A stretch of 25,420 nucleotides of DNA from an uncultured Methanosarcinales archaeon (GCA_964550945.1 CAZKBD010000002.1:16727-42146); one strand, 5' to 3'. Positions 517-13,830 are shown, counted from the first letter of the stretch. Notes: generated from the sequence alone by a model not told the origin. Numbers and translations: made by a program.

Positions 517-1081
517 GTTGAATTTCCTCCAGAACTTTATCAAGCGTTCTTTCTGCCAACCTTTTTGATTCACTTGATACCTTAGAAAATGCTTTTAATG
601 TTCTTGGATCAATCCTTCCCCTGTATAATAATCCATTTTTTGGTTTAAAGGCATCATCCACATCCAAAGAATCTTCTGAGATACCCCATCCCAAATATTC
701 TCTCATTGTATAGATATGTTCGCTCGATTCTGGATACGTTTTTCTTAACCCATCCCTAATATGAGTTTCAAAAGTAAGCACCACATAAGCATCAGTTACC
801 AATCTCTCATTGACAGGTTTTATTTCATGATCTTCAATTTCATGGATTCCTTCCCTATTCATTACTTCTCTTATCCAATGATTTGCACCAGTATCATTCT
901 GTCTGAGGAAATCGTTTATTTTTTCTTCGTTAAAACCTGCTGAATCAACTCTTATATAACCAATTCCTCTCTCATCTAGGATATGATTCATATGTGCATG
1001 ATAAGATGCACTTCTGCCTTTATTATTACCACATACTGCTAATATTACATATTTTCCTTGAGTTTGAGTGGATAGTTCCAT
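503..1081 (-). CDS. low-molecular-weight protein-tyrosine-phosphatase / ArsC-type phosphatase family protein
   Basis: The P-loop VILAVCGNNKGRSASYHAH fits the C-X5-R-(S/T) signature near the N-terminus, with a later DSAG motif. The ORF is open to 1117 (MWIYLLGHFHFK-MELS...). I prefer the ATG at 1081 because it puts the P-loop Cys at residue 17, as is typical. A TATA-like element (complement of about 1105-1112) lies about 28 nt upstream of that ATG. Confidence 0.7.
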   Translation of the reverse strand: MELSTQTQGKYVILAVCGNNKGRSASYHAHMNHILDERGIGYIRVDSAGFNEEKINDFLRQNDTGANHWIREVMNREGIHEIEDHEIKPVNERLVTDAYVVLTFETHIRDGLRKTYPESSEHIYTMREYLGWGISEDSLDVDDAFKPKNGLLYRGRIDPRTLKAFSKVSSESKRLAERTLDKVLEEIQHETK

Positions 1082-1122
1082 CTTGAAGTGGAAGTGACCT
1101 AACAAGTATATCCACATTATTC

Positions 1123-1136
1123 CACCCTAAGGGGTG
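1123..1136. promoter_or_regulatory. GC-rich inverted repeat CACCC-N4-GGGTG in the divergent phosphatase/TrmB intergenic region (possible operator)
   Basis: A 5-bp perfect inverted repeat (1123-1127 / 1132-1136) stands out in an otherwise AT-rich spacer. It lies just upstream of the TATA box of the TrmB-family gene. Function not demonstrated. Confidence 0.25.
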
Positions 1137-1150
1137 AACAATAGAAAAAT

Positions 1151-1158
1151 TTATATAA
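1151..1158 (+). promoter_or_regulatory. TATA box (TTATATAA) for the TrmB-family gene, leaderless spacing
   Basis: The palindromic TTATATAA is centred about 26 nt upstream of the ATG at 1180. There is no Shine-Dalgarno between them, as expected for a leaderless archaeal transcript. Confidence 0.55.
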
Positions 1159-1179
1159 TAACCCAGAATCATTAATAAC

Positions 1180-1944
1180 ATGAATACAGAAATACTTGAG
1201 AAAATTGGATTTACAAAAGGAGAAATTAAGGTGTATTTCTCTCTATTGGGGTTAAGTAACTCTACCTCTGGGCCAATTATTTTGAAGTCCAATGTTTCCA
1301 GATCAAAGGTCTATGAAATTCTTGAAAGATTAAAAGAAAAAGGGATAGTCAGCGAATCCATTAAAGAAAACACAAGATATTTTCAAGCAGCTTCTCCTGA
1401 ACGAATTTTGGATTACATTGAAGAAAAAGAGGATTCAATTAAGAATCAAAAAGAAGAATTCAAGAAGAGTTTGCCAGAATTAATTCAAAAGCAAAAATAT
1501 GCCGAAGAAAAGCAAGAGGTAAAAGTTTATGTCGGTTTTGAAGGGATAAAAACATTCTATAATGAAATATTAAAGCAATTAAATGAAGGCGATGAATACT
1601 TGGCTATGACATTTTCAGACATTTCATTGAACAATAAATCAATAGTACTGATGTTTCAAAAATTCCACCAAAAGAGGTCAGAAAAACACGCCAAAGCAAG
1701 GATTTTATGCAACATTAAAGACAGATTGACCCAGCAGAAGATGAACTACTCTGATACTGCTCTCTATGAATTTAGGGTTACCAATCAGATATTGCCTACA
1801 GGAATTGCTATTGTGAAAGATATTGTCGCAACCTTTAACTGGGGCAAGAAACCAAGAGTTTTTGCCATAATCTGTAAGGAAAACGCAGACCAATACAGGA
1901 GATTCTTCTATTCAGTATGGCATAAATCTAACCCTGTTCAATAA
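1180..1944 (+). CDS. TrmB-family transcriptional regulator (short form, 254 aa)
   Basis: The N-terminal winged helix LEKIGFTKGEIKVYFSLLGLSNSTSGPIILKSNVSRSKVYEILERLKEKGIV is followed by a charged coiled-coil linker, the typical TrmB N-terminal architecture. It is too short for a full sugar-binding domain. Confidence 0.8.
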   Translation: MNTEILEKIGFTKGEIKVYFSLLGLSNSTSGPIILKSNVSRSKVYEILERLKEKGIVSESIKENTRYFQAASPERILDYIEEKEDSIKNQKEEFKKSLPELIQKQKYAEEKQEVKVYVGFEGIKTFYNEILKQLNEGDEYLAMTFSDISLNNKSIVLMFQKFHQKRSEKHAKARILCNIKDRLTQQKMNYSDTALYEFRVTNQILPTGIAIVKDIVATFNWGKKPRVFAIICKENADQYRRFFYSVWHKSNPVQ

Positions 1945-3136
1945 CTGCCAAACAATAATTCTTTGTCAGATACTTATTAACAACCCTTATAATGTCTTTT
2001 TTCTGTATTTTTCTTATGTTTCTTATGTATTCGTTGATTAAATTTGCGTCGCCATTCATCTCCCAGAAATTAAGCTCATCAGCCAAATGAAAAGTATCTT
2101 CGTTATGCAATAAATATTCCCCTTCCAAATAAGTCTTAGCCTCTTTTAATTCCTCATCACTCAACTCTTTCAATTTTTCGAATTCTTCAAGAATCAATCT
2201 TACTACCAAGGGAATATTTTTCTTATCAGTATTCAGGTAAACAGCGAAATATCCATAACTTATGTTAGCTTCATGGTTAGCTCCAACCTCGTAAGCCAAT
2301 CCTCTTTTATTCCTTATCTCAATAAACAACTTGCCAGACTGGCCTCTGCCAAGTACAGCTTTTATAATGTCCAAAACATAGCTGTCTTTTTCTTTTCTGT
2401 TTACTGTTTTATAGCCTAAAACCATGTAAGAGCTGAGTATCTTTCTTTTTTCAGTCAGTTTTTGTATGCTTTTTTGCTTAGGCTCGTTTACTATCCGCTT
2501 TTTATCAAAATTTTTTCTATCAAAACCATAGAAATACCTCTTTATCAGAGGCAGGGGATTTTCTATTCCGCCTACGACTGCAATAATAATATTATTTGGC
2601 CTATAATATCTTTCAAAATAAGCCATAATATGCTGCCTTTTTATCTTTTTTATGGCTTGGACTGTGCCATAAACCGGGTTTTTTGTTGGGGATTTCTTGA
2701 AAAGAGCTTTCTGAAACAGAACCCATTGATGGAATCTTGGCTCATCCTTGACCATATTTATCTCTTTTAATATGACCTCTCTTTCGCGCTCTATGGACTT
2801 ATCCTCAAAAAGAGGATTTTGGATAACATCAGATAAAACATCTAAAGCAATCTCAAAATGCTTGTTCAGAACCTTGACAAAGAAGCATGTTTTTTCGTTA
2901 GAGGTATAAGCATTAAGATCTCCTCCTAATTTTTCAATCTCATTTGCAATCTCTTTGTTGGTTTTCCTTTTTTTTGTGCCTTCAAAGACCATGTGCTCAA
3001 TAAAGTGAGATATGCCGCTGACTTTTGAATCTTCATTGTTAGAGCCTGTTTTAACTGTTATCTCAATAGCAACTGATTTAGCAGCTTTCTTCTCAAAAAT
3101 CACTGTCAGGCCATTATTTAAGACAAATTTTTTCAT
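1928..3136 (-). CDS. M16 (pitrilysin/insulinase) family zinc peptidase
   Basis: The inverted zinc motif H-F-I-E-H is encoded at 2993-3007 (GISHFIEHMVFEGTKKR). A length of 402 aa with two homologous halves is typical of M16B. Confidence 0.9.
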   Translation of the reverse strand: MKKFVLNNGLTVIFEKKAAKSVAIEITVKTGSNNEDSKVSGISHFIEHMVFEGTKKRKTNKEIANEIEKLGGDLNAYTSNEKTCFFVKVLNKHFEIALDVLSDVIQNPLFEDKSIEREREVILKEINMVKDEPRFHQWVLFQKALFKKSPTKNPVYGTVQAIKKIKRQHIMAYFERYYRPNNIIIAVVGGIENPLPLIKRYFYGFDRKNFDKKRIVNEPKQKSIQKLTEKRKILSSYMVLGYKTVNRKEKDSYVLDIIKAVLGRGQSGKLFIEIRNKRGLAYEVGANHEANISYGYFAVYLNTDKKNIPLVVRLILEEFEKLKELSDEELKEAKTYLEGEYLLHNEDTFHLADELNFWEMNGDANLINEYIRNIRKIQKKDIIRVVNKYLTKNYCLAVIEQG

Positions 3137-3158
3137 ACAACAAATTTAAATGCCAAAC

Positions 3159-3168
3159 TATTTAAATA
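3159..3168. promoter_or_regulatory. perfectly palindromic TATA box TATTTAAATA shared by the divergent M16 and M24 genes
   Basis: The 10-nt palindrome is centred at 3163.5. That is 27.5 nt from the minus-strand ATG (3136) and 28.5 nt from the plus-strand ATG (3192). There is no SD on either side. Confidence 0.5.
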
Positions 3169-3191
3169 TAATCTTTTTGATATAAGCACTA

Positions 3192-4256
3192 ATGAGGATA
3201 AAAGAATTTCAGGAATGGCTGAAAGGGAAAAATATAGATTTTGCATTGCTTCTGAATAATTATAAGCAGGATCCAAACTTGTTTTATCTTACCCAGCTTG
3301 ATTTGGAATTTGCCTGCCTGATCATACCTAAAAATAAAAAACCTCTCTTGATTGTATCTTCTTTTGAAAAGGAAAGAGTGAAAAAATACGGCAAAATAAA
3401 AAATGTTATCGGCAAAAAGAAAGGACGGCTATTTGAGTACATCAAACACAGATTAAACAGAGCAAAAAAAATTGGAATAAACAAAAACGTATTTTCAGTG
3501 AACGAATATAAAGCGCTTAAAAAATACTTTAAGAAGTGCAGATTTATTGATATATCGCAAGAATTGACTAACCTAAGGCAGATAAAAACTAAGGAAGAGA
3601 TTTTATTGATAAAAAAATCAGCATCAATCGCTTCTAAAATCACTGAGAAATGCATATTGAATATCAAGAAACTTAAAACAGAGATAGCTGTAAAAGATTT
3701 TCTTGAAGTTGAAACAAAAAAGAATGGTTGTGAAATCGCATTTCCGCCTATTGTAGCTTCTGGCAGCAATGCCGCGATGCCCCATCATGCTCCGCAAAAT
3801 ATCCCACTAAAAAAAGGATTTTGCGTTATTGATTTTGGAGTTAAACACAGAGGATATTGCTCTGATCTAACAAGGACAGTTTATATTGGGAAGCCTTCTA
3901 AGAAAGAATTAGAACTTTATAACTTTTTATTGGATATACAACAGAATACCATTAAGGAGATAAAGATAAATAAGAAAACTTCTGATTTATACAATAAAGT
4001 TGTAAAAGACCTTGGAAAATTTAAAAAATACTTTACTCATGGCCTGGGCCACGGCATTGGAATAGAAGTGCATGAAAATCCCAACCTAACACCTGGCTCT
4101 AAAGATAAAATCAAGCAAGGCATGGCATTTACTGTTGAGCCAGGGATTTATATAAAGGACAAAATAGGGATAAGGATTGAAGATGACATACTGGTTGGAA
4201 AAAATAGTGTTGAGGTTTTAACAAAGACAAAAAAGAATTTGATTATCATAAAATAA
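3192..4256 (+). CDS. M24B Xaa-Pro aminopeptidase / prolidase family
   Basis: Pita-bread metal-ligand motifs are present: VIDFGVKHRGYCSDLTRT, HGLGHGIGIEVHENP, EPGIY and IRIEDD. Confidence 0.9.
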   Translation: MRIKEFQEWLKGKNIDFALLLNNYKQDPNLFYLTQLDLEFACLIIPKNKKPLLIVSSFEKERVKKYGKIKNVIGKKKGRLFEYIKHRLNRAKKIGINKNVFSVNEYKALKKYFKKCRFIDISQELTNLRQIKTKEEILLIKKSASIASKITEKCILNIKKLKTEIAVKDFLEVETKKNGCEIAFPPIVASGSNAAMPHHAPQNIPLKKGFCVIDFGVKHRGYCSDLTRTVYIGKPSKKELELYNFLLDIQQNTIKEIKINKKTSDLYNKVVKDLGKFKKYFTHGLGHGIGIEVHENPNLTPGSKDKIKQGMAFTVEPGIYIKDKIGIRIEDDILVGKNSVEVLTKTKKNLIIIK

Positions 4257-4260
4257 AAAA

Positions 4261-7131
4261 ATGAGACTCAATATGGCAAAATTTATAAGGATATCACATC
4301 TGCACTTGATGATTTTAATTGCCATTCTCTTAATCCATCCAGTTTTTGCTGCTAGTAATTGTACAGATTCCGATAATGGACAAAACTTCTTTGAAAAAGG
4401 AACAATGACTGATTCTGATTCAGGATATACTTATTCAGATTATTGTAGTTCTGATAAACTAGTAGAATTCTACTGTGATCCTGGATATCATTTCATCTAT
4501 AAGAATTGCTCTGAGTATAGCATGGTTTGTGAAGATGGAGCTTGTATAAATATGACCGCGCCACCTCCAACGACAGATAATTGCGCAGATTCTGATGGAG
4601 GGCAAAATTTTGATAACAAAGGAGTAGTTGTAGATAGAACAAATCGTACTGAGATAGATTATTGTACTAGTTCTTCTCAACTAGTTGAATGGTATTGCAG
4701 TTCCAATAACCTAGTTGAGTATGTGTACCAAACGTGTAGTTGTGAAAATGGAATGTGTGTAGAACTACAAGAATGTATAGACTCTGATGACGGGGTTGAT
4801 TATTATACGAAAGGAACTACAACTGGCCTTGCTTATATGAGAATAATAGACCCCACAGGAGACTATCCTCCAAATACAGGAGTATCCTTAACTGATTATT
4901 GTACAAGTTCTACATTTCTAAGGGATTACTTTTGTAATGAGGCAAAAAAAGTAACTTTCTACGCATATGAATGTCCCAACGGTTGTCAAGAGGGGGTTTG
5001 TATTACACCATCAAACAAATGTTCAGACGGAACATCTTATGGAGAATGTTCATCAACAAAACCAAAATATTGTGATAATGGAAATCTAATTAATAATTGT
5101 CAAGTATGTGGTTGTCTTTCTGGTCAAACATGTGAAACGAACGGCAGTTGCACTTCTCCACCATCAGAAGTTGTATGCACAGATTCTTCAATATTAGGAG
5201 ATGCAAATAATGATGGCAAAGTAACTTATGACGATTACATAACTGTTTTTAACATATACGCTGGTTCAATCCAACCGCCATCCAATCTTTGCTGTGTTGA
5301 CCTGGATAAGGATGGAGAGATTACAAGGGAAGATTCCCAGCTCACATATGATATCTATGTTGGAAAAATTAATCTGGGAAGATGCAATATAGCTGGTTGT
5401 GTTGTTGGAGATCCATGCACTACTTCAGAAAACTGCCTAGGAAAATATGATGTTGGCTGTAATTGCATAGATATTCCAAATGATAATTGTCCAGCTATTG
5501 TTAATGATACCACCCACCCAATAATTTCTGATGTGTCAATTACGCCTGAAGTTGGACCACCCGGAACTATTTTCACAATAAACTCAAGAGTTGAAGATGA
5601 ATCTGCATTGCAATATGTCGTAACTCCTATTTATATTCTTAACGATTATCAAAATTCAATTCAGTTGAATATGTATGACGATGGGCAACATAACGATGAA
5701 CAAGCTGATGATGGTATTTATGGTGCAGTATGGGACTCAACAGGATATCAAACAGGAGTGTATGGTTATGCTGTTTCAACAAGAGATTTTTATAATAATG
5801 ATGCATCCACTACTCTACACTATTTCTTGATTGCAGAAACAACGGATTTGTGCAAAGAAGTAATTCCAGGACACAATAACCTAAATGAACCGAGAGCAAA
5901 TATAGTTTTTGTTGGAATCAACTATCCAGACAAAGAATTTTTTAAAACAATAGTGGAAGAGAGTGTTGATTACGAAGGAAATAAACAAGGCCTATTGTTC
6001 TTAGAGCCTTTAAAATCAAATAAAGATAAATTTAATTTCTGGTATGTTGATGAAACTAAAGATTTGGGGCATAATCATTGGGATGATATCAGTGCATCAA
6101 ATAGTGAGAGGATACGATTGTCTTTTATGTGCCCCCTAAGCAACAAATATGTAATAGCGTATTATAACACCTTCTTTAGGCCACAGGCATTTTATAAAGC
6201 CCATGCAGAAATTTCATTTTTAGATGTTGACTGCTCTTTTAGGCAATACTGTGATAATGGTGATTTAGATCAAGATGGATGTGTATCTGGCCAGGATTAT
6301 CTGAATTATATGGATATGACTTTGGCACAAAACTTTGAAGATAAATCAGTTCCTGATATAAATGAAGATGGAAATATTAATGGAGATGATTTAGAAGTTT
6401 CATATTTATGCCAGGTATACAGAGTTGGTTGTTCAAATGAATATCCAGATTGCTTAAGAAGAGATATTTTTGATGATTATAAAACATATACTCCTCATGA
6501 AGTCGGACACTTATTTGGGGGTTTATTAGATGAATATGTTGAGGAAGGAGTAGCTCCTTATTCGATTTCTTATAACGGAAATTGTTTCCAAGGGACAAAG
6601 CAAGAATGTCTTTCAAATTTAAATGATAAATGGTATGATTTACTGGGTTATGGTTGTGGAGATAATAACAAAATAGATTGTGCTCAAGAGCCGAACTGCC
6701 AATATGATGCAAATGAAGATGGAAAGGTCACAATAGAAGACAGAGATGTTGTTTATAATATGTATACAGGTCAAATACCAATGAAAAATTGTACATCAGG
6801 GGGTCAAGAATATATTATCGGAGATGTTGATAATGATGACATATTAGAGTACGAAGATTATATAAAAGTGAGTAATGTAGGTAGTCTTGGTGTAGTGTGT
6901 GATGACCCGAATGATCCAGGATGTTATTTAGAAGTTGGTTGTTTTGAAGGGTGTAATTATCAAGCAACAGGGTGGTTTAGGAATACCGTATCCAACCTAA
7001 TGAGAAATAATTTTGTAGGTCCAGAATATTTTTCATATGGTCCTGTAAATGAGAGGATCATATGCGAAGAGATAAAATCTATTACTGGCTCAGCAACAGG
7101 CATATGTTCAACAAAATATAATACAGGGTGA
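4261..7131 (+). CDS. secreted multidomain protein: signal peptide, 3 Cys-rich repeats, Cys knot-like module, 3 dockerin-like modules, Ig-like domain, M64 (IgA-peptidase-like) zinc metallopeptidase core
   Basis: N-terminal signal/anchor KFIRISHLHLMILIAILLIHPVFA|AS. HEVGHLFGGLLDEY at 6496-6537 matches the M64 signature HExGHxFxxLxDEY. The upstream IVFVGINYPDKEFF...LEPLKSNKDKFNFWYVDE resembles the M64 core. An alternative ATG lies at 4273. Confidence 0.75.
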   Translation: MRLNMAKFIRISHLHLMILIAILLIHPVFAASNCTDSDNGQNFFEKGTMTDSDSGYTYSDYCSSDKLVEFYCDPGYHFIYKNCSEYSMVCEDGACINMTAPPPTTDNCADSDGGQNFDNKGVVVDRTNRTEIDYCTSSSQLVEWYCSSNNLVEYVYQTCSCENGMCVELQECIDSDDGVDYYTKGTTTGLAYMRIIDPTGDYPPNTGVSLTDYCTSSTFLRDYFCNEAKKVTFYAYECPNGCQEGVCITPSNKCSDGTSYGECSSTKPKYCDNGNLINNCQVCGCLSGQTCETNGSCTSPPSEVVCTDSSILGDANNDGKVTYDDYITVFNIYAGSIQPPSNLCCVDLDKDGEITREDSQLTYDIYVGKINLGRCNIAGCVVGDPCTTSENCLGKYDVGCNCIDIPNDNCPAIVNDTTHPIISDVSITPEVGPPGTIFTINSRVEDESALQYVVTPIYILNDYQNSIQLNMYDDGQHNDEQADDGIYGAVWDSTGYQTGVYGYAVSTRDFYNNDASTTLHYFLIAETTDLCKEVIPGHNNLNEPRANIVFVGINYPDKEFFKTIVEESVDYEGNKQGLLFLEPLKSNKDKFNFWYVDETKDLGHNHWDDISASNSERIRLSFMCPLSNKYVIAYYNTFFRPQAFYKAHAEISFLDVDCSFRQYCDNGDLDQDGCVSGQDYLNYMDMTLAQNFEDKSVPDINEDGNINGDDLEVSYLCQVYRVGCSNEYPDCLRRDIFDDYKTYTPHEVGHLFGGLLDEYVEEGVAPYSISYNGNCFQGTKQECLSNLNDKWYDLLGYGCGDNNKIDCAQEPNCQYDANEDGKVTIEDRDVVYNMYTGQIPMKNCTSGGQEYIIGDVDNDDILEYEDYIKVSNVGSLGVVCDDPNDPGCYLEVGCFEGCNYQATGWFRNTVSNLMRNNFVGPEYFSYGPVNERIICEEIKSITGSATGICSTKYNTG
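4360..5001 (+). repeat. three tandem divergent Cys-rich protein modules (C-x-DSD-x-G ... DYC-[ST]S ... [FW]YC ... G-x-C)
   Basis: Module 1 is 4360-4545 (CTDSDNGQNFFEKGT...DYCSSDKLVEFYC...CEDGAC). Module 2 is 4582-4758 (CADSDGGQNFDNKGV...DYCTSSSQLVEWYC...CENGMC). Module 3 is 4774-5001 (CIDSDDGVDYYTKGT...DYCTSSTFLRDYFC...CQEGVC). The similarity is at protein level only. Confidence 0.7.
5197..5370 (+). other. dockerin-like module 1 (two Ca-binding loop/helix repeats)
   Basis: GDANNDGKVTYDDYITVFNIYAGS ... VDLDKDGEITREDSQLTYDIYVGK, a paired repeat of about 22 residues with a DxNxDGxxxxxD loop. Confidence 0.65.
6253..6410 (+). other. dockerin-like module 2, inserted inside the M64 core upstream of HExxH
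   Basis: DNGDLDQDGCVSGQDYLNYMDM ... DINEDGNINGDDLEVSYLCQVY. Confidence 0.55.
6703..6870 (+). other. dockerin-like module 3
   Basis: YDANEDGKVTIEDRDVVYNMYTGQ ... GDVDNDDILEYEDYIKVSNV. Confidence 0.65.
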
Positions 7132-7135
7132 GAGC

Positions 7136-7684
7136 ATGAAAAAAATATTAATTATCTTTTTATTGGTTAGTTTAGTTTTACCCCTAGTTTATTCTGCGCA
7201 ACAAAAAGTCTATATCTTAAACCTAAAATATGATGAGGGGAAGGTTACAAAAGAAAGCCTGATTGTTACACGAGGCATGTTTAGTGAAGAAAGCCAACCA
7301 GAAACAGGATACAGACTAGAATTAATCTCTTTTGCAGGTGAAATCATTTATACGCGGAAATTTAGTTTTCCAGAACTTCAGAAAGGACCCTTGCCCAAAG
7401 AGTCAGATATTTTAGAAAGAGAAAAATACTTGCCAAATATAAAAGAAAAAGAACATTCTATCTTAAGAACATCCTCAGTTGAATTAATGATACCTTATTA
7501 TGAAGATGCAAAGACAATTAGAATTTATGATGTAAATGATATAAATGTATTAGAGATTGATGTTAGCTCTTTTTCAGAAAGGGCTGCTATTGATGAGACA
7601 TCAGCAGAAAAAGTAAATCCAACCAAAAGTTTGTTTCAAAGAATAGCAGATTTCTTAAAAAGGGTATTTGGATTAGGTGTGTGA
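7136..7684 (+). CDS. small secreted beta-rich protein, unknown function, translationally coupled to the M64-like gene
   Basis: Signal peptide MKKILIIFLLVSLVLPLVYS|AQ. GGTGA (7127-7131), overlapping the upstream stop codon, sits 4 nt before the ATG. There is a C-terminal amphipathic helix SLFQRIADFLKRVFGLGV. Confidence 0.6.
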   Translation: MKKILIIFLLVSLVLPLVYSAQQKVYILNLKYDEGKVTKESLIVTRGMFSEESQPETGYRLELISFAGEIIYTRKFSFPELQKGPLPKESDILEREKYLPNIKEKEHSILRTSSVELMIPYYEDAKTIRIYDVNDINVLEIDVSSFSERAAIDETSAEKVNPTKSLFQRIADFLKRVFGLGV

Positions 7685-7711
7685 CTAATAGAGACCACTC
7701 AAAAACCAAAG

Positions 7712-7720
7712 AAATAAATA
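7712..7720 (+). promoter_or_regulatory. TATA-like box AAATAAATA upstream of the long M29 paralogue
   Basis: Centred about 27 nt upstream of the ATG at 7743, the same spacing as the other first genes in this window. Confidence 0.4.
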
Positions 7721-7742
7721 CAAGTAGTTAGAAAAAATCCAT

Positions 7743-9524
7743 ATGAAATACAACCTAAGCATATTCAACAAGGAAGTTGGCTATTACCTTAACAAATTAA
7801 AGGGCAAGGTAAAAAATAAGACTATTTTTGTGATTATAGACATAAAACACCAAAAAGCATTTTATTCTATCGCTGCTCTATCAAGAGCGACTAATGAATT
7901 AGGCGCAGACCTTCATGTTGTTGTAATTGACGGCAAAAGCAAGAATTTGGAGATGATTAAGGATGTGTGGAGCATATATGATGACCTGAAAAAAAAGCTA
8001 AGAACCAAAAAAGCTGGAGCTCTGCGGGCTTTTATCAGCGCCGTAGACAAAAGGACATCTAATAACACGTTCATGGATATTTTTGAAAGGCCTGAATTTA
8101 TTCTAACTGCAAATGAACACAATTTCTCTGGGACAATTGAATTGGATTATAAGGATAGCTGGCACAAAAAATACAGACAAGAAGAGCTTTTGGAAACTGC
8201 AAAAAAGATATGGAAAGAGGGATATGCTGTCAAAAAAGATGAAAATGTGAGCATTGGTTTTGTTTTAGTCCCATCAAAAAAGGATACAGAGCTGCCTTTA
8301 GAAGATTATCTTGACTCTTCTTCAATTTCCTTGGCAATGGCAATGGCAGCCAAAGGATTTAAGGCAAAAGTCAGCTTGGCTTCTTCAACAGACAGGTCTT
8401 CCCAGCTAGAAAAGCCTGTGAGAACAGCTGAGTTAATGATGACTTTAAGGGGCTGTGAGATGGATAAAGAAGTTGATGATGAAATATTCAGAAAATATAA
8501 GGAATTTTCAAAATTAATGAATATGGAAAAAATGGAGTTCAGCCAAGCCAGTTTCGGGATTCATGCCAAAGGGTATTATGGACGGCATTTCTTTGGAGAA
8601 CGGATAGGATACCCTAGCTTAGATAAAAAAACAATATGGAGCTCTCCTGGGCAGCTCATGCTGAAAGACAGGTATGAGCCGCAAGCGGCATTAGAAAAAA
8701 GGGACCCTATGATGAGGTATGCTATTACAGAAACATTGCCCATAGACCTTTTCATTGAAACATGCAATGTGGATTATGGGAAGCTAAGAAAAAGAAGCAT
8801 CAAAATAAGGGATATATTCAATAAATGCAGATACATAAGGGTTGTTGGAAAACAAATTGGCAATTATAAAACTGATTTTAGGGTTGATTTGATAACAAAA
8901 GAAGGCAAAAGAAGAGAATTTACTGCTTCTGACTCTGATGTTACATCAATAATTGACCAGGAATGGTATAAAAAAACCGGCAGGAAATGCGGAGCTTATG
9001 CAAATTTTCCATCTGGAGAGACTTTTGTGACTCCTGAGAAAATGAAAGGCATGATGATTGGAGATGTAGTCATTAATGTTGACAGGAGCTATGTTATACC
9101 TAAAGGAAATCCCATAATAGTTGAATTCGGAGAAAAAGGATATAAAGTGATAAAAGCGCCTGCAAATATATTGAAGGCTATGAATAAAGTAAGAAGAGAG
9201 TCAAAGCAAAAATTGAAGGATTATGAAAAAAATAAAAGCCTGCCGAAAGAGATTATTGAGATTTACAAAAGAAATTTCTGGAATATTGGCGAATTTGCAG
9301 TAAATACCAATCCAAAAGCGAAATTATGCAATTACCTTATTGTAAATGAAAAGATTGCAAGGATGATTCATGTTGCTTTAGGCTTAGGTTTTGAGCCAGA
9401 CCGTAAAACATTATACCATTGGGATATTGTGGTCAATTCACCTAAACAGAAAATGGACATATATGGAGTTGATGACAATAATAAAATTTACTGGGTAATC
9501 AAAAAAGGGGAATTTGTTGCATGA
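7743..9524 (+). CDS. M29 (aminopeptidase T/AmpS/PepS)-like protein, expanded 593-aa form
   Basis: The C-terminal half carries M29-like motifs: NFPSGETFVTPE, IGEFAVNTNPKA, NEKIARMIHVALGLG and TLYHWDIVV. The N-terminal KTIFVIIDIKHQKAFYSIAALSRATNELGADLHVVV resembles the M29 N-domain. It has about 275 more residues than its neighbour. Confidence 0.6.
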   Translation: MKYNLSIFNKEVGYYLNKLKGKVKNKTIFVIIDIKHQKAFYSIAALSRATNELGADLHVVVIDGKSKNLEMIKDVWSIYDDLKKKLRTKKAGALRAFISAVDKRTSNNTFMDIFERPEFILTANEHNFSGTIELDYKDSWHKKYRQEELLETAKKIWKEGYAVKKDENVSIGFVLVPSKKDTELPLEDYLDSSSISLAMAMAAKGFKAKVSLASSTDRSSQLEKPVRTAELMMTLRGCEMDKEVDDEIFRKYKEFSKLMNMEKMEFSQASFGIHAKGYYGRHFFGERIGYPSLDKKTIWSSPGQLMLKDRYEPQAALEKRDPMMRYAITETLPIDLFIETCNVDYGKLRKRSIKIRDIFNKCRYIRVVGKQIGNYKTDFRVDLITKEGKRREFTASDSDVTSIIDQEWYKKTGRKCGAYANFPSGETFVTPEKMKGMMIGDVVINVDRSYVIPKGNPIIVEFGEKGYKVIKAPANILKAMNKVRRESKQKLKDYEKNKSLPKEIIEIYKRNFWNIGEFAVNTNPKAKLCNYLIVNEKIARMIHVALGLGFEPDRKTLYHWDIVVNSPKQKMDIYGVDDNNKIYWVIKKGEFVA

Positions 9525-10474
9525 AGTTAAAAAAACAAGTTTCTTTGTCTATACTCAAGAATTGCATGGCTCTTAAAAAAACCGAGCGCTTATTGATAGT
9601 ATATGATAAACATAAGGAAGATATTGCTGATTCTATTATCGATGAAGCGAAAAAAATTACTGAAAACATAAGAAAAATTCAAACAAAAATCGCTAAAGTA
9701 AATGGCGAAGAGCCTTCTAACAAAGTTGCAAAAGAGATGCAGAAGTGCGATGTTTTGCTGCTGATAACTACCAAATCCCTCTCTCATACAGAATCCAGAA
9801 GAAAAGCGTCTAAAAAAGGAGTAAGGGCAGCAAGCCTTCCTGGCGTGACTGTAGAAATGTTAAACAGAGCACAAACCGCCGATTACCTAAAAATAAAAAA
9901 AATAAATGATAGGATATACAAAAAAATAAAAAACAAAAAAATTCTAAGAATCAAAACAGACAAAGGAACTGATTTATTGGTTTATATTCAAACTCCAGTT
10001 ATTGATTCTGGGTTATACATCAAAAAAGGCTCTTTTGGGAATCTTCCTGCTGGAGAGGTTTTATTTGCTCCTGTTGAGCATAAAACAAAAGGCATTGTTG
10101 TGATAGATAAGACCATGGCAGGAATAGGAAAACTAAAAAGCCCTATCAAACTGAAAATTGAAAATGGTTACGTTAAAGAGATTACAGGGAAAAAAGAAGC
10201 TGTAAAACTGGATAAACTATTGGGAGAATTTAAGACAAAAGCAGTTTACAACATTGCAGAATGCGCATTTGGCACTAATTATAAGGCAAAAATCAGCGGA
10301 ATTACATTAGAAGATGAAAAGGTTTTTGGGACTGTCCATATAGCATTAGGAGATAATACTAGCTTCCCAGGCGGAAAAACAAGAGCTCCTGTCCATCTGG
10401 ATGGGGTTATTAGCAAGCCGACTGTGTATGTGGATGGTAAGAAGATAATGAACAAAGGCAAGTTATCCATCTGA
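9521..10474 (+). CDS. M29 family aminopeptidase (compact 317-aa form)
   Basis: Motifs present: GNLPAGEVLFAPVE, IAECAFGTNYKA, LEDEKVFGTVHIALGDN and APVHLDGVI. An ATGA start/stop overlap with the upstream paralogue lies at 9521-9524. Confidence 0.8.
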   Translation: MKLKKQVSLSILKNCMALKKTERLLIVYDKHKEDIADSIIDEAKKITENIRKIQTKIAKVNGEEPSNKVAKEMQKCDVLLLITTKSLSHTESRRKASKKGVRAASLPGVTVEMLNRAQTADYLKIKKINDRIYKKIKNKKILRIKTDKGTDLLVYIQTPVIDSGLYIKKGSFGNLPAGEVLFAPVEHKTKGIVVIDKTMAGIGKLKSPIKLKIENGYVKEITGKKEAVKLDKLLGEFKTKAVYNIAECAFGTNYKAKISGITLEDEKVFGTVHIALGDNTSFPGGKTRAPVHLDGVISKPTVYVDGKKIMNKGKLSI

Positions 10475-10485
10475 AAACAGAAAGG

Positions 10486-10495
10486 TTTAAATATA
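10486..10495 (+). promoter_or_regulatory. TATA box TTTAAATATA (preceded by AAAGG) of the NTase/HEPN cassette
   Basis: The same TTTAAATATAAT string occurs at the M16/M24 promoter (3161-3172). Here it lies about 62 nt upstream of the ATG, implying a short leader. Confidence 0.45.
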
Positions 10496-10513
10496 ATTCT
10501 AGATTATTAGAAT
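10496..10513. promoter_or_regulatory. inverted repeat ATTCTA-N6-TAGAAT abutting the TATA box (candidate operator)
   Basis: Perfect 6-bp arms at 10496-10501 and 10508-10513 lie between the TATA box and the expected transcription start. The downstream gene encodes a winged-helix domain. Confidence 0.35.
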
Positions 10514-10551
10514 ATATTCAAAAAAAATAGAAAAATTTCAAAAATCTTAGA

Positions 10552-11421
10552 ATGATAATAAACAATAAGGCGCAAGCAGCAATCATGGGGTTTCTGACAG
10601 AGAGATGGTATGATTCTTTTACAGCCAAAGAAATCAAGGAAAAAACTCACCTTAGTTTTCAATCGGTTTATGACTCGCTTCATTTCCTGTCAGACAAGAA
10701 CATAGTAACGCTTCATAACAACAGCTACGCAATCAACTTCAGAAATGAAATTGCCTGGTCGTTCAAAAAACTGTATGATAGCAATAAGTTTTTACAGTTA
10801 GATCAGCATCTCCAGAATATCATAAAACTTATGAGGGAAAAGCTTGAGTTATTTTACCAATACGATCTGCTTGCTTTTTTAGTTTTCGGCTCAATAGCAA
10901 AGCTAGAGCATAAAAAGAAAAGCGACATTGACTTTTTTGTCCTATTCAAGGATAAACAAAAAGATTTTCTAAAAACCTTAACATTAGACTATGCCAATTT
11001 TAATTATATCGATAAAGATATCGCCGAATTTAATAAGGAATTTGAAGAAGGAGACGATCTTTTGATTTCGATATTCAAAAATAACCTAATAATGTACGGA
11101 AATGATTTTCTAAGGCATTATTTCGAAAAAGGCCTGCCCAATATAGGCAAGAATGTAATAGATGATAGGGAAAAGGCTCTTGAAAAGATGAAGCACAAAA
11201 TCGATAGTTTGTATAGAGAAGACAACAACCAGATGTTAGTTGAAGTTTTTAAAAGGTATGTGCTGTTAAAATCAAGAGTTGAACTTATCAGAAGATTAAA
11301 CAAGATTCCGTCAACAAAACAGGAAACACTAAACGAAATGAGAAAGATAGATAAAAAGCTGATAGAATCTTATAATGCAAACATAAAGAATATTAAAAAA
11401 ATTGTTGAGGCCCATGTCTGA
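10552..11421 (+). CDS. winged-helix + minimal nucleotidyltransferase (MNT-like) fusion protein with C-terminal helical domain
   Basis: The NTase signature G-S-x10-D-x-D (GSIAKLEHKKKSDIDFFV) is encoded at 10888-10932. The N-terminal wHTH-like segment is AAIMGFLTERWYDSFTAKEIKEKTHLSFQSVYDSLHFLSDKNIV. Confidence 0.75.
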   Translation: MIINNKAQAAIMGFLTERWYDSFTAKEIKEKTHLSFQSVYDSLHFLSDKNIVTLHNNSYAINFRNEIAWSFKKLYDSNKFLQLDQHLQNIIKLMREKLELFYQYDLLAFLVFGSIAKLEHKKKSDIDFFVLFKDKQKDFLKTLTLDYANFNYIDKDIAEFNKEFEEGDDLLISIFKNNLIMYGNDFLRHYFEKGLPNIGKNVIDDREKALEKMKHKIDSLYREDNNQMLVEVFKRYVLLKSRVELIRRLNKIPSTKQETLNEMRKIDKKLIESYNANIKNIKKIVEAHV

Positions 11422-11842
11422 ACGGATCAAAAAAGTTTATGAGTTTACAAAAGAGAGATTAGAGAAAGCTATATCCTTTTTTAATGAAGGGGATGTTGAG
11501 GATTCTGTGCAGAATATCTGGTCTGTTTTTGAGAATTGCATAAACTTGTTAAAAGATATCAAGAATCATGCCCCTTTATACCAGCATAGACCAAAAACAG
11601 AGCTGTTTAGGAAGTATTACAGGGAGAAAATCCTGTCAAAGGATTACTCTAATTTTCATAAAGAAATTGACGATTACAGGAAGAGGGCATTTCTAAGCGA
11701 ATATTCAAGAACAAAGCCCTTGCCGCCATTAGCCTCTATTAAGCCTTATTTGGATAAGGCTAAAGAGCTTTTTGAAGAAACAAAACAAGAGCTAATAAAA
11801 GAGAAGGTAATAGAAGAAAGAAAAACGTCGCAAGAGAAGTAG
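11414..11842 (+). CDS. HEPN-like all-helical protein, partner of the nucleotidyltransferase
   Basis: The ATG at 11414 overlaps the NTase stop by 8 nt (ATGTCTGA), with GAGG (11407-11410) 3 nt upstream. The track's start at 11402 is a TTG. The helical pattern EKAISFFNEGDVEDSVQNIWSVFENCINLLKD...H...DDYRKRAFLSEY resembles the PF05168-type HEPN usually paired with MNT. I found no R-x(4-6)-H motif. Confidence 0.55.
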   Translation: MSERIKKVYEFTKERLEKAISFFNEGDVEDSVQNIWSVFENCINLLKDIKNHAPLYQHRPKTELFRKYYREKILSKDYSNFHKEIDDYRKRAFLSEYSRTKPLPPLASIKPYLDKAKELFEETKQELIKEKVIEERKTSQEK

Positions 11843-11889
11843 ATGTTGATGGTAAGAAAATAATGGATAATTGGAAGTTAGTATTATAA
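11839..11889 (+). pseudogene. orphan relic of an M29 aminopeptidase 3' end (16 codons + stop)
   Basis: This stretch translates to VDVDGKKIMDNWKLVL*, compared with VYVDGKKIMNKGKLSI* at the functional gene end (10424-10474). Identity is 36/51 nt, ungapped, with the stop at the same offset. Confidence 0.65.
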
Positions 11890-11892
11890 CAA

Positions 11893-11898
11893 TTTTTT
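11893..11898 (+). terminator. oligo-T run (T6) after the relic stop codon
   Basis: Archaeal terminators are typically T-tracts. This one lies 4 nt after the relic TAA in a convergent gap. Confidence 0.3.
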
Positions 11899-11930
11899 CT
11901 GAAGTGTGTTTAATGATGCCAAAGCAACTG

Positions 11931-12581
11931 CTAGCTAACCTGGGTAATTTTGATGGAACACTCTTCTCTCTGATCTTTATTAGTAATTAAACCACATAGG
12001 TTGATGTCGCTTAAATCAATGGCTAATAAATAATAACAAACATCTTTTTCGTTTTGGTAATTGATTTTATTACATATTTCAATGTTCTTTTCTTGCCTAG
12101 CAATTTTTATGTAACAACTAGGTATTGAATACTGAGATGTCTTGAAAGTAACTACCGAATCACATATACTTAAATCATTAGCAGTTATAGCCAAGAATTC
12201 ATAACATTTATTTTTAGTATCTAAAAATGTCCTATTTAAGTCTGCTCCTATAGGGGCCCATTGAGGATAGGATCCCCCAGTTGAGATAGAATCACAAAAA
12301 TCTTTAGTTATAGTGTTATTTTTACCACCTAGCACATCCCCCATTTCCATATTAAGAAGTGTTACGTAACAGGGCTCAGCACCAAATTCAGCTTCTTTGC
12401 ATCTATTTAGCCCCTCATCATATTTTCCTTGCCTAATTAATGTTAATCCTTCACCTATAATTCCTGTAGCTTTTTCTAGTCTTTTATTACGTTCGTTACG
12501 CTCCATTACATAAAGAACCCCATAAATTATCACAATAATAACAAGGACTGATAAAACCACACAAATCAGTTTTTTAGTCAT
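11931..12581 (-). CDS. N-terminally membrane-anchored Cys-rich protein, unknown function
   Basis: A single TM helix LICVVLSVLVIIVIIYGVLYV is followed by repeated C-containing units (DLSICDSV, IPSCYIKIARQEKNIEICNKI, KDVCYYLLAIDLSDINLCGLI, REECSIKI). Confidence 0.6.
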   Translation of the reverse strand: MTKKLICVVLSVLVIIVIIYGVLYVMERNERNKRLEKATGIIGEGLTLIRQGKYDEGLNRCKEAEFGAEPCYVTLLNMEMGDVLGGKNNTITKDFCDSISTGGSYPQWAPIGADLNRTFLDTKNKCYEFLAITANDLSICDSVVTFKTSQYSIPSCYIKIARQEKNIEICNKINYQNEKDVCYYLLAIDLSDINLCGLITNKDQREECSIKITQVS

Positions 12582-12603
12582 ACATTATCTATGAATCTCC
12601 TAG

Positions 12604-12612
12604 TATATAAAA
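12604..12612 (-). promoter_or_regulatory. TATA box (TTTTATATA on minus strand) for the Cys-rich membrane protein gene
   Basis: Centred about 27 nt upstream of the minus-strand ATG at 12581. Confidence 0.45.
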
Positions 12613-12642
12613 TTTACTGGCAATATAATGCAAACCCAAAAC

Positions 12643-12650
12643 TATATAAA
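12643..12650 (+). promoter_or_regulatory. TATA box TATATAAA for PAN
   Basis: Centred about 26 nt upstream of the ATG at 12673, with no SD. Confidence 0.5.
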
Positions 12651-12672
12651 TTCAAAAGCATTTTACTAAGAA

Positions 12673-13830
12673 ATGGCAGATAATAATGGAACAGAGGGTA
12701 AGAACATTCTTGACAGCGTTATTTACAAATACTCAACAACCACAAACCAGCTTGAAGAAGAAAATAGGATTCTGAAAGATACCCTAAATAAGCTAAAAGA
12801 AGAATTGGATAAATTTAGGGTGCCTCCTTTAATGGTTTGTGAGATCAGGGATATAAAAGATGACACAGCAATAATCAGAGTTCCAAATGGCAATGAGTTT
12901 CTCGTGAATATCACAGGCGAATGTGAAAAATTAAAGCTAGGCGATTCAGTGCTTTGCGAGCAAAAAAACCTCACAGTAATGAAAAAGCTGTTATTGTCAA
13001 AGAAGTTTAATGTTGAAAAGTTTGTAATAGTTGAAAAACCTACAACAGAATGGAGCGAGATTGGTGGCTTGGACCAGCAGATAACTGAGATACAGGAAGT
13101 AGTTGAGCTGCCATTAACCAAACCAGAGCTGTTTAAAAAGGTAGGGATAGAGCCCCCAAAAGGAATACTGCTTTATGGCCCGCCTGGAACAGGGAAAACA
13201 TTATTGGCAAAATCAGTGGCTCATTCTACAAATTCCACTTTTATAGAGATTGTGGCATCTGAGCTAGTCCAGAAATTCATTGGAGAAGGCGCTAAACTGG
13301 TTAAAGAGATATTTGAGCTGGCAAGAAAAAAAGCCCCTTCAATCATCTTTATTGATGAGCTTGATGCTTTAGCTTCCAAAAGAGTAGAGATTGGCACATC
13401 TGGAGAAAGGGAAGTGAACAGAACATTTATGCAGCTTTTAGCTGAGCTTGACGGGTTTAAGCCATTGGATAATGTCAAGATAATCGGAGCAACAAACAGA
13501 AAAGATATATTAGACCCAGCCATAATAAGGCCTGGAAGATTAGACAGATTGATACATGTTCCTGCGCCTAATAAAGAGGCAAGAGCCACTATATTTAAAA
13601 TCCATACAAAAAGGATGACCTTAGACAAAAACATAAATGTACAAGTTGTTGTTGATAAGATGGAGAACTTTTCAGGAGCTGAGATTAAAGCAGTTTGCAC
13701 TGAAGCAGGTTATTTTGCAATAAGAGCTAACCGCAAAAAAGTTGTAAGAGAAGATTTCTATCGGGCTGTAGAAAAGGTAAAAAGAGAAGAAAAATTAGAA
13801 GGCCAAGACTACCTTAATATGTTTGGCTGA
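12673..13830 (+). CDS. pan: proteasome-activating nucleotidase (AAA+ ATPase, Rpt homologue)
   Basis: N-terminal coiled coil (LEEENRILKDTLNKLKEELDKF) and an OB-like segment. Walker A GPPGTGKT is at 13177-13200, followed by Walker B IIFIDELD and second-region-of-homology ATNR...RPGRLDR. Confidence 0.9.
   Translation: MADNNGTEGKNILDSVIYKYSTTTNQLEEENRILKDTLNKLKEELDKFRVPPLMVCEIRDIKDDTAIIRVPNGNEFLVNITGECEKLKLGDSVLCEQKNLTVMKKLLLSKKFNVEKFVIVEKPTTEWSEIGGLDQQITEIQEVVELPLTKPELFKKVGIEPPKGILLYGPPGTGKTLLAKSVAHSTNSTFIEIVASELVQKFIGEGAKLVKEIFELARKKAPSIIFIDELDALASKRVEIGTSGEREVNRTFMQLLAELDGFKPLDNVKIIGATNRKDILDPAIIRPGRLDRLIHVPAPNKEARATIFKIHTKRMTLDKNINVQVVVDKMENFSGAEIKAVCTEAGYFAIRANRKKVVREDFYRAVEKVKREEKLEGQDYLNMFG

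Follow-up and report, generated by a model that had tools for sequence, protein, structure and literature searches.

The window, i.e. the whole 25,420-nucleotide stretch of DNA that was analysed, contains two M29-type peptidase genes in tandem. The gene considered here encodes an aminopeptidase T-like protein of 317 aa (positions 9521 to 10474, plus strand; Pfam PF02073, E = 3.5e-13). It has 3104 homologues, the closest of which (78, 77 and 72 % identical) all derive from DPANN archaea. A discrete 1.35-kb unit, referred to below as the cassette, begins at the next base (10475 to ~11824) and carries two genes on the plus strand. It is followed by 14 nt of junction filler, ACGTCGCAAGAGAA (11825 to 11838, plus strand), by a second version of the end of the M29 gene, hereafter the orphan tail (11839 to 11889, plus strand), and by a run of six T residues, read directly from the sequence (11893 to 11898, plus strand). 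A convergent gene then encodes a lineage-specific, Cys-rich protein of 216 aa with an N-terminal membrane helix (11931 to 12581, minus strand). This protein is an ORFan: a single other match was obtained, 31 % identical across half its length, and searches of Pfam, NCBIfam and PADLOC returned none. Its upstream region (12582 to 12632, minus strand) extends from the start codon to the point at which homology to the native spacer begins, and contains a TATA-like box that may act as its promoter. To the right lie the native promoter and spacer of PAN, beginning AACCCAAAACTATATAAATTC (12633 to 12672, plus strand), which abut the M29 stop codon in relatives, and the gene for PAN itself, a proteasome-activating AAA ATPase and the ancestral downstream neighbour of M29 (12673 to 13830, plus strand; Pfam AAA, E = 3.5e-43, with a match to Prot_ATP_ID_OB_C).

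The last 16 codons and the TGA stop codon of the functional M29 gene (10424 to 10474, plus strand) encode VYVDGKKIMNKGKLSI, and the orphan tail, which appears to be a non-coding relic of another allele, would encode VDVDGKKIMDNWKLVL. The two are identical at 36 of 51 nt without gaps, and their stop codons are in register. The tail sequences, coordinates, match count and stop offset of the original prediction were reproduced exactly; its core of 21/23 identities is corrected to 20/23 (10430 to 10452). Between 10428–10465 and 11843–11880, 31 of 38 nt are identical, and a high-identity core, GATGGTAAGAARATAATG, matches at 17 of 18 positions, with more diverged arms. It is apparent that homology ends abruptly at both edges of the repeat, as no extension was found upstream or downstream, gapped or ungapped. 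The stop codon of the second cassette gene (TAG, 11840 to 11842) falls within the first two codons of the orphan tail, an overlap that the original prediction had implied.

A short repeat in an AT-rich (35.5 % G+C), low-complexity genome might be a chance match, or the arrangement might be an assembly chimera. The ungapped score of the repeat was 41, compared with 22.2 ± 1.9 (maximum 31) in 300 dinucleotide shuffles of the window minus the repeat, a test that the original prediction had named and that it passed. When the window was compared with itself by BLAST, the two tails were the best direct repeat (E = 0.004). A position-specific scoring matrix (PSSM) was built from the C-termini of 112 family members, with the window's own protein left out. 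The functional tail scored 33.4 bits and the orphan tail 24.3 bits, while the next best, non-M29 sequence among 874 stop-preceded 16-mers in six frames scored −18.6 bits, so that the orphan tail falls well beyond the null distribution. Six independent assemblies of at least 99.5 % identity, each covering parts of the region, agree with one another, and two of the six (L093 and L094) span the M29 gene, the cassette, the orphan tail and the Cys-rich gene. Because six assemblies cover parts of the region and two span the whole arrangement, an assembly artefact is excluded; the repeated M29 gene end is real. With the stop codons in register as well, we attach practically no credence to chance or chimerism as the source of the repeat.

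The left end of the cassette (10475 to 10551, plus strand) contains a BRE/TATA-like sequence, AAACAGAAAGGTTTAAATA, and palindromic repeats of the form ATTCTA-N6-TAGAAT (palindrome I1 and related repeats), all kept in the three copies of the cassette that were found. Promoter and operator roles for these are putative. The first gene encodes a wHTH-nucleotidyltransferase (NTase) of 289 aa (10552 to 11421, plus strand), which matches Pfam Polbeta (PF18765; 31 bits against a cut-off of 26.9) and NTP_transf_2 (PF01909; 27.6 against 21) and, in PADLOC, PDC-S09/M05A. It carries a GSx10DxD motif, GSIAKLEHKKKSDID, and scores 26 bits against the MntA equivalog NF047752, under the cut-off of 60. The NTase is a putative MntA-like antitoxin and autoregulator. 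The second gene, co-oriented with the first and overlapping it by 8 nt, encodes a small all-helical partner of 142 aa (11414 to 11842, plus strand). This protein had been labelled HEPN, a label that should be softened to PaREP1/HEPN-like: the match to PaREP1 (PF05942) is sub-threshold (E = 0.0018), AF2 predicts a helical bundle (pLDDT 72) whose Foldseek matches to HepT/HEPN structures are non-significant (best E = 0.26), a sequence search of the PDB gave no match, and the catalytic Rx4-6H motif is missing from all three partner homologues.

MNT/HEPN, or MntA/HepT, modules constitute the type VII toxin-antitoxin systems (PMC7641770). The cassette resembles them in its overlapping two-gene operon, in an NTase with GSx10DxD and in a small all-helical partner that has weak similarity to the HEPN clan through PaREP1 and for which HepT structures rank high in the fold search. 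In type VII systems the partner is toxic and is neutralised by AMPylation; such an activity of the cassette is putative. It differs from them in that the NTase comes first, is large (289 aa) and has an N-terminal wHTH domain and a C-terminal helical extension, in that the partner, under every family threshold, lacks the Rx4-6H RNase motif, and in that the family is very rare, being present in three lineages in 5.8 billion proteins. A distant haloarchaeal wHTH-NTase likewise has an overlapping downstream gene.

Only two homologues of the NTase were found among 5.8e9 proteins, and both belong to further copies of the cassette, at loci L089 (81 % identity) and L091 (75 %). In both, the NTase and partner genes remain paired; in L091 the partner gene contains an in-frame stop codon, which is compatible with toxin decay. 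Homology among the three copies opens at the first base past the M29 stop codon (10475), ends at ~11824 and has the same termini in the two other, mutually unrelated contexts. The cassette is therefore mobile, being found in three unrelated contexts, and in this respect the original prediction was borne out. It had also raised the question of whether other copies are flanked by duplicated host-gene ends: neither L089 nor L091 has such a duplication or an M29-like tail. No repeat flanks the L091 copy (P = 0.49). The L089 copy lies in an array of similar small cassettes with same-orientation hairpin repeats between them, and the repeat that flanks it is this array-wide element, with no duplicated target DNA. 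The inter-cassette repeats matched no family when L089 and L091 were searched with Rfam, and the L089-type hairpin repeat does not occur in the window.

It was of interest to compare the cassette with integron gene cassettes and CALINs, of which the archaeal ones are rich in toxin-antitoxin cassettes (PMC9668308). A promoter-bearing, toxin-antitoxin-like module of one or two genes in different genomes, and the array in L089, are points of likeness. In contrast to integron cassettes, no attC-like element, IntI or attI was found in the window, and the L089 repeats, which are not part of the segment in common with the window, do not fit canonical R''/R' boxes. A transposon with target-site duplication was considered and rejected. 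It would have terminal inverted repeats and near-identical short target-site duplications at every copy; no inverted repeat pairing the two cassette ends was reported, and the flanks of the L091 and L089 copies show no such duplication. Searches of the 2.2-kb insert and of the annotated genes (~0.5 to 20.6 kb of the window) detected neither an integrase nor a transposase, as the original prediction had stated. Neither the cassette nor the Cys-rich gene was found on a virus, phage or plasmid, the only matches being haloarchaeal wHTH-NTases of ~25 % identity.

The state of the locus before the insertion is indicated by its relatives. The order of a 593-aa gene, M29 and PAN is kept in those relatives with long enough contigs, and empty sites, with the PAN promoter no more than ~50 nt after M29, were found in 11 of the lineages sampled (loci L081, L082, L084, L088, L098, L099, L122, L125, L129, L130 and L152). 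The promoter motif lies 0–3 nt past the M29 stop codon in L081 and L129, and the M29 ORF reads through it in L098. Since PAN directly follows M29 in relatives, the extra DNA in the window amounts to ~2.16 kb and includes the Cys-rich gene, and the orphan tail is situated in the middle of it, away from its edges. The original prediction had envisaged an empty site in which M29 is followed by the T-run and the Cys-rich gene; what the relatives show is M29 and PAN side by side. Its suggestion that the T-run was the original terminator is likewise not supported, as the run has no counterpart in the closest relatives, and a T-run past the M29 stop codon in more distant relatives is part of the PAN TATA box. 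The run may instead terminate the cassette transcript. No cassette, Cys-rich gene or third M29 paralogue is present between M29 and PAN in the sampled relatives, which are 58–78 % identical. The absence of the cassette from every one of them supports its being an insertion at M29, in agreement with this part of the original prediction.

Because empty sites exist, a reading in which the orphan tail is all that is left of a third, decaying M29 paralogue, with the NTase/HEPN pair ancestral at this position, is largely refuted, and we regard it as highly improbable. There is no M29 homology 5' of the 51 nt, where conserved cassette sequence is found instead. The window does already have a tandem pair of M29-type genes, and a second tail scoring at least 12 bits was found at one other locus, L027, among 149 loci (1.78 Mb); that tail lies ~1 kb downstream and possibly belongs to a tandem paralogue.

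There are archaeal integrative elements and casposons whose target is the 3'-distal part of a protein-coding or tRNA gene (PMC6563490). The original prediction followed this model, with a cassette that carried its own replacement for the M29 gene end; in full, a site-specific integrative element would have an attP that mimics the M29 3' end, its integrase having been lost or acting in trans. Several features of the arrangement are in line with it. The direct repeats come from a gene 3' end, leave the gene intact and bracket the cassette exactly, their length of 51 bp is within the range reported for archaeal att sites, and the 17/18 core with its more diverged arms resembles an att core. The residues encoded there, VDGKKIM, are, however, the most conserved of the protein, and explain the conservation equally well. 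Several results are also at odds with the model. The unit common to the three cassette copies (10475 to ~11824) excludes both tails, so the replacement gene end lies outside the cassette, and the copies in L089 and L091 lie away from M29 genes and without any gene-end repeat. The DNA past the orphan tail is a lineage-specific gene and not the native PAN promoter, and if the cassette and one tail are removed, the Cys-rich block is still left over in comparison with the empty site. No orphan tail was found at the other M29 loci among the 149 examined, and there is therefore no evidence for the M29 end as a recurrent att site. The window further differs from known elements in having no integrase, casposase or terminal inverted repeats, in repeats that are only 71 % identical and in an inserted unit of 1.35 kb. 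An integrative element is thus considered unlikely. Incoming DNA may still have re-supplied the gene end, which would then derive from another M29 allele and not from an att site owned by an integrative element.

The manner in which the two tails differ bears on their origin. By codon position, their identity is 0.69/0.94/0.50, and the corresponding values for the window's M29 gene and its 78 %-identical relative are 0.84/0.88/0.52. The divergence of the tails is therefore comparable to that between different lineages and carries the signature of purifying selection. Of the 15 differences, four are in the first 27 nt and 11 in the last 24, clustered in the last seven codons, which are variable in the family. 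The orphan tail agrees with the family consensus at D10, N11, V15 and L16, where the functional tail differs, and it matches the tails of P0018, P0019 and P0024 at 12 of 16 residues. Its damage is confined to the two most constrained positions, where an aromatic residue is replaced by D and a near-invariant G by W.

These observations can be set against the possibility that the cassette, on insertion, duplicated 51 bp of its target in situ, by a staggered cut and fill-in or by template switching, and that the copy then decayed. Direct repeats do flank the cassette, the left one abutting it and the right one 14 nt away, and the two damaging substitutions are such as a copy released from constraint would acquire. 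Neutral decay of an in-situ copy was simulated, and the probability of an intact tail as family-like as the orphan tail was 1e-4 if all 15 differences fell on the orphan, 4.5e-3 if 10 did and 0.029 if seven did. Even with the split that suits this reading best, the functional copy, though constrained, would have had to change at a rate no lower than that of the neutral one. Identity at second codon positions of 94 %, against 50 % at third positions, and the concentration of differences in family-variable codons also speak against it, as do the lack of a flanking repeat in L091 and the array-wide nature of that in L089. An in-situ duplication is accordingly thought very improbable. The PSSM, the decay simulation and the codon positions agree, and support the view, already put forward in the original prediction, that each tail is a true M29 gene end and that most of their divergence arose while both were functional, as in distinct alleles.

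The locus most likely records recombination between two of its diverged versions, and a classical integrating element is a less likely source of the repeat. Specifically, we lean, by a modest degree, towards a recombinant locus in which the orphan tail originally formed the 3' end of another, diverged M29 allele and was then displaced: the fragment is homologous to the end of the upstream gene, and foreign DNA lies between them. From an ancestral order of M29 stop codon, spacer of up to ~50 nt and PAN promoter, the self-contained 1.35-kb cassette would have landed directly behind the M29 stop codon in one lineage, and the Cys-rich membrane-protein gene behind that of another. Joining of the two haplotypes would then have set one M29 end and the cassette in front of the 16 terminal codons of the other allele. 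The junction at 11825 to 11838 would be the illegitimate one; it shows no clear microhomology, and a nearby 12-nt identity is out of register. The second crossover would have been homologous and upstream of the tail, as in C-terminal displacement by homology-facilitated illegitimate recombination (HFIR). Alternatively, it may have taken place inside the 51-nt tail, through Campbell-type integration of a circle carrying the donor's gene end, although the ~29 % divergence of the tails would hamper homologous recombination there. The orphan tail would have drifted afterwards (Y to D and G to W), and would now supply the stop codon of the partner gene and possibly its T-run terminator. We infer the order of events, the identity of the native tail and the recombination pathway. 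Nucleotide identity to relatives did not discriminate between the tails as the native one (33/33, 32/35, 28/28 and 33/35 matches), because they are too short for the relatives to decide. Base composition over the insert did not discriminate either. Relatives rank alike on both sides of the insert, L081 being nearest for both M29 and PAN, and no phylogenetic discordance was detected between the genes to its left and right, so that nothing points positively to a foreign origin for the body of the M29 gene.

To our knowledge, HFIR has been demonstrated in bacteria and not in DPANN archaea. C-terminal displacement leaves orphaned 3' regions in Rhs, CDI and T6SS effector-immunity loci, for which HFIR has been proposed (PMC5361080). 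As in those loci, an intact gene and its cargo precede a displaced, diverged, homologous 3' end, and no dedicated recombinase is involved; in the mechanism proposed, one junction would be homologous and the other illegitimate. Here the gene is a housekeeping peptidase, there a polymorphic toxin; only 16 codons are displaced, in a single orphan and not a string; the cargo is an unrelated toxin-antitoxin-like cassette and not a cognate immunity gene; and the host is a DPANN archaeon whose donor haplotypes have yet to be observed. The orphan tail does not, of course, reveal a new class of element.

The parental haplotypes (M29–cassette–PAN, and M29 with an intact orphan-type tail–Cys-rich gene–PAN) were not found in any collection searched. 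Exact-protein look-up of the window's M29 and NTase returned no record. Among species-representative genomes, the best M29 relative was 57 % identical and matches were mostly bacterial, and thus of no use for synteny. In a metagenome scan with low-complexity patterns from the single M29 protein, none of 600 matched stretches encoded a relative; a later scan used a hand-made degenerate DNA pattern. Should the haplotypes be recovered from the source metagenomes, a base-by-base reconstruction of the recombination pathway would become possible.

Gene exchange and gain are poorly documented among DPANN archaea, which are uncultured and possess very small genomes. The leftover gene end indicates that two diverged lineages contributed DNA that was joined with no dedicated recombinase nearby, and a rare toxin-antitoxin-like cassette whose termini are exact has passed from genome to genome. 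A bolder proposal, which we put forward as a rather doubtful one, is that the cassette, with its fixed termini, spreads among DPANN archaea without a recombinase of its own, and that the orphan tail records hitch-hiking homology: on leaving one genome, the cassette would carry away part of the adjacent housekeeping gene, and would use this part to recombine into the orthologue in a new host. If true, this would constitute a general, recombinase-independent means of transferring defence or toxin-antitoxin cassettes between reduced genomes.

The locus also provides a clean natural record of a conserved housekeeping junction, that of M29 and PAN, repeatedly accepting new DNA. Independent gains in this spacer were observed in at least three other lineages. 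In L126 a convergent ORF encodes a 94-aa membrane protein, which was considered as a homologue of the Cys-rich protein and rejected, the match being confined to the membrane helix. The L156/L158 spacer contains an element of ~230 nt that is rich in inverted repeats, and that of L119 contains additional hairpin-rich DNA.

The window is AT-rich archaeal DNA (35.5% GC), and the names attached to its nearest protein relatives are those of DPANN groups (Nanoarchaeota, Woesearchaeota). The original prediction described a direct repeat in which the last 16 codons and stop of the gene for a 317-aa M29 peptidase (9521-10474), situated at 10424-10474 and referred to here as the functional tail, recur at 11839-11889 as an orphan tail. 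Between the two lies a cassette (10475 to ~11824) composed of a wHTH-NTase gene and a PaREP1/HEPN-like partner gene. The repeat was confirmed: 36 of 51 nt are identical in an ungapped alignment (31/38 in the core), with the stop codons in register. Its ungapped score of 41 withstands comparison with 300 dinucleotide shuffles, for which the score was 22.2 ± 1.9 and the maximum 31. The pair is the top direct repeat of the entire 25-kb window by self-BLAST (E = 0.004), and identity breaks off sharply at both ends. Six independent assemblies cover the region in parts at an identity of at least 99.5%, and two of them, L093 and L094, reach from M29 across the cassette and orphan into the Cys-rich gene beyond. 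Since all six agree and two are spanning, the arrangement is not an assembly artefact. Chance matching and misassembly are thus excluded as sources of the repeat, and the observation itself is well supported. A separate 12-nt stretch, AAAACAAGAGCT, is shared exactly by the 3′ region of M29 (10376-10387) and the 3′ portion of the HEPN-like gene (11782-11793). Its register differs from that of the tail repeat by 9 nt, its local P is 0.004, and only the window's copy of the cassette has it; it could represent chance or recombination microhomology.

The orphan was scored with a PSSM constructed from 112 family C-termini, the window's own protein being left out. The functional tail reached 33.4 bits, the orphan 24.3, and the runner-up among 874 stop-preceded 16-mers in six frames -18.6. 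Within 149 other loci (1.78 Mb), a second tail was found only in L027, where it lies ~1 kb beyond the M29 gene and may belong to a tandem paralogue. As many as 12 of the 16 orphan residues agree with real tails of the M29 family (proteins P0018, P0019 and P0024), and the orphan has family-typical residues at sites of difference from the functional copy. It is off-family at the two most constrained positions, at which an aromatic residue has become D and a near-invariant G has become W.

These features bear on whether the orphan arose by in situ duplication of the target DNA. When neutral decay from the functional tail was simulated, an intact, equally family-like sequence was obtained with P = 1e-4, 4.5e-3 and 0.029 when 15 (all), 10 and 7 of the differences, respectively, were assigned to the orphan. 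Identity between the tails at codon positions 1/2/3 is 0.69/0.94/0.50, as compared with 0.84/0.88/0.52 for the window's M29 gene and that of a 78%-identical relative. Both results speak against in situ duplication, which is disfavoured, and together with the PSSM scores they indicate that the tails diverged mostly under purifying selection; the earlier contention that both copies evolved as gene ends is borne out by the simulation and the codon positions. The divergence of the tails is about as deep as that separating distinct lineages, with decay of the orphan beginning only afterwards. The TAG stop codon of the HEPN-like gene, which falls within the first two orphan codons (11839-11844), was made by two orphan-specific substitutions, GTG to GTA and TAT to GAT, the second of which accounts for the 'damaging' replacement of Y by D.

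In relatives at 58-78% identity, M29 is followed, after a gap of at most ~50 nt, by PAN, the gene for a proteasome-activating AAA ATPase (L081, L082, L084, L088, L098, L099, L122, L125, L129, L130 and L152). A 593-aa M29-like gene lies upstream of M29 in those relatives whose contigs are long enough. Native spacer was recognized in the window at 12633-12672 (AACCCAAAACTATATAAATTC...), matching spacers in L081 and L129 that start 0-3 nt past the M29 stop. The extra DNA therefore extends over ~10475-12632, or 2.16 kb. In it lie the two cassette genes (NTase and HEPN-like), the orphan tail and a convergent Cys-rich gene (11931-12581, minus strand) whose 216-aa product is an ORFan. The orphan is situated mid-insert, not at the right edge of the extra DNA. 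The empty site had been expected to retain the Cys-rich gene directly after M29; the relatives have PAN in that place, without the Cys-rich gene. These empty sites also largely refute the proposal that the orphan is a relic of a third M29 paralogue.

Two further features of the syntenic block were observed. In L098, a 77%-identical relative, the M29 ORF lacks its usual stop and runs on across the PAN promoter motif ACCCAAAACTATATAAAT (region 960-1022), so that its C-terminus is ...GKLYPKLYK. At 4261-7684 the gene for the M24 peptidase and that for the 593-aa M29-like protein are separated in the window by two extra genes, one for a secreted protein of 956 aa that is Cys-rich and dockerin- and M64-like, the other for a 182-aa protein; in relatives at ~65% identity (L084, L099, L088, L152 and L156) M24 is followed directly by the M29-like gene. 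The two extra genes are a second lineage-specific gain within the same block as the M29-PAN insert.

A search of 5.8 billion proteins yielded just two homologues of the NTase. The corresponding cassettes share 81% (L089/L090) and 75% (L091) nucleotide identity with that of the window. The shared segment begins exactly at 10475, the first base past the M29 stop, ends at ~11824 among the partner gene's final codons, and takes in a BRE/TATA-like promoter and palindromic operator-like repeats (palindrome at 10499-10518). By these sequence comparisons the cassette is a mobile unit in its own right, and no M29 end belongs to it. The original prediction had raised the question whether other copies, too, are flanked by duplicated host-gene ends; other copies do exist, but no M29-like tail was found at either the L089 or the L091 locus. 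In L091 the cassette sits between Sec61-beta and NAC genes with no flanking repeat (P = 0.49). Its NTase gene is intact and its HEPN-like gene (3745-4161) is interrupted by an in-frame stop at codon 57, as would fit post-insertion decay of the toxin half. A search for viral or plasmid carriers found none, and, in line with the original statement, neither an integrase nor a transposase was found in the window's annotated part. The strain-level contig L095 (2781-3071) parts from the window sequence at 11477, within the HEPN-like gene, and beyond this point carries an Rpo7/E′-like S1-domain gene absent from the window; this is probably a chimeric contig end, the alternative being a structural variant.

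The locus is most likely a scar of the C-terminal-displacement type. One M29 allele would have carried the cassette immediately past its stop codon, and the other would have ended in ...VYVDGKKIMDNGKLVL and a stop, with CAATTTTTTCTG and then the Cys-rich gene beyond it. The two would have been joined at an illegitimate junction (11825-11838), with a homologous crossover either upstream of the tail, as in homology-facilitated illegitimate recombination (HFIR), or inside the 51-nt tail, where a circle bearing the gene end of the donor would have undergone Campbell-type integration. The orphan would then have gained the Y-to-D and G-to-W changes; its TAG now ends the partner gene, ahead of a T6 run (11893-11898). 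Analogous orphaned 3′ regions occur at Rhs, CDI and T6SS loci, for which HFIR is the proposed mechanism (PMC5361080). The parental haplotypes (M29-cassette-PAN and orphan-type M29-Cys-rich gene-PAN) were not found in any collection searched, and no phylogenetic discordance was seen among the flanking genes. The site-specific integrative element of the original prediction is a less likely alternative: the 51-nt repeat is within the att length range, and 3′-distal gene targets of integration have precedent in archaea (PMC6563490), but of four defining features tested, three are lacking. Insertion as such, and the presence of two genuine gene ends, stand from that model; its inserted content, its carrier of the replacement end and its form of the empty site call for revision.

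In L089 (contig k141_3845727) the cassette lies within an array of one- and two-gene TA/defence cassettes (500-13610; also in L090), comprising three HEPN/NTase-type pairs, Fic, two AbiEii, MarR-like and other genes. The cassettes are set apart by a recurring, same-orientation element consisting of a hairpin (GGTTCGCC) with a ~25-nt loop containing an invariant CAG, then GGCGAAC, and often followed by a box, AACAAnnTGTTTTC...AAGTAGTTAAAA. These array-wide repeats account for the repeat flanking the L089 cassette. The array looks integron- or CALIN-like, although its repeats do not fit the canonical R′′/R′ boxes of attC and matched no Rfam family.

The NTase protein combines a wHTH at its N-terminus with a Pol-beta-type NTase domain that exceeds Pfam thresholds, and bears the MNT motif GSx10DxD; it matches the MntA equivalog under the cut-off, as well as PADLOC candidate-system models. 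The partner is all-helical (AF2 pLDDT 72). Its sole family match, in the window and L089 copies alike, is a sub-threshold one to PaREP1; the Rx4-6H motif is absent, and similarity of its fold to HepT/HEPN structures is non-significant (best E = 0.26). In function the cassette probably resembles an autoregulated two-gene module of the MNT/HEPN type, and it is a candidate member of the MntA/HepT family. A distant wHTH-NTase (~25% identity) was observed on Halalkalicoccus jeotgali plasmid 2 (L163, 1417-2614), where the next gene overlaps it and encodes 169 aa without a Pfam match. This suggests that modules pairing a wHTH-NTase with a small partner are more widespread among archaea and poorly annotated.

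The M29-PAN spacer is a recurrent landing place for DNA, with independent gains in other lineages. In L126 (130-560, oriented on M29) a convergent ORF of 94 aa, whose product begins with a membrane helix, occupies it in a layout like that of the window's Cys-rich gene, the protein being unrelated. In L156 (6432-6700, oriented on M29) and L158 the spacer holds a ~230-nt non-coding element with long nested inverted repeats (e.g. GGCTGCGTTGAAAAT pairing with ATTTTCAACGCAGCC), perhaps a MITE or a structured RNA. The spacer in L119 contains ~100 nt of additional, hairpin-rich DNA.
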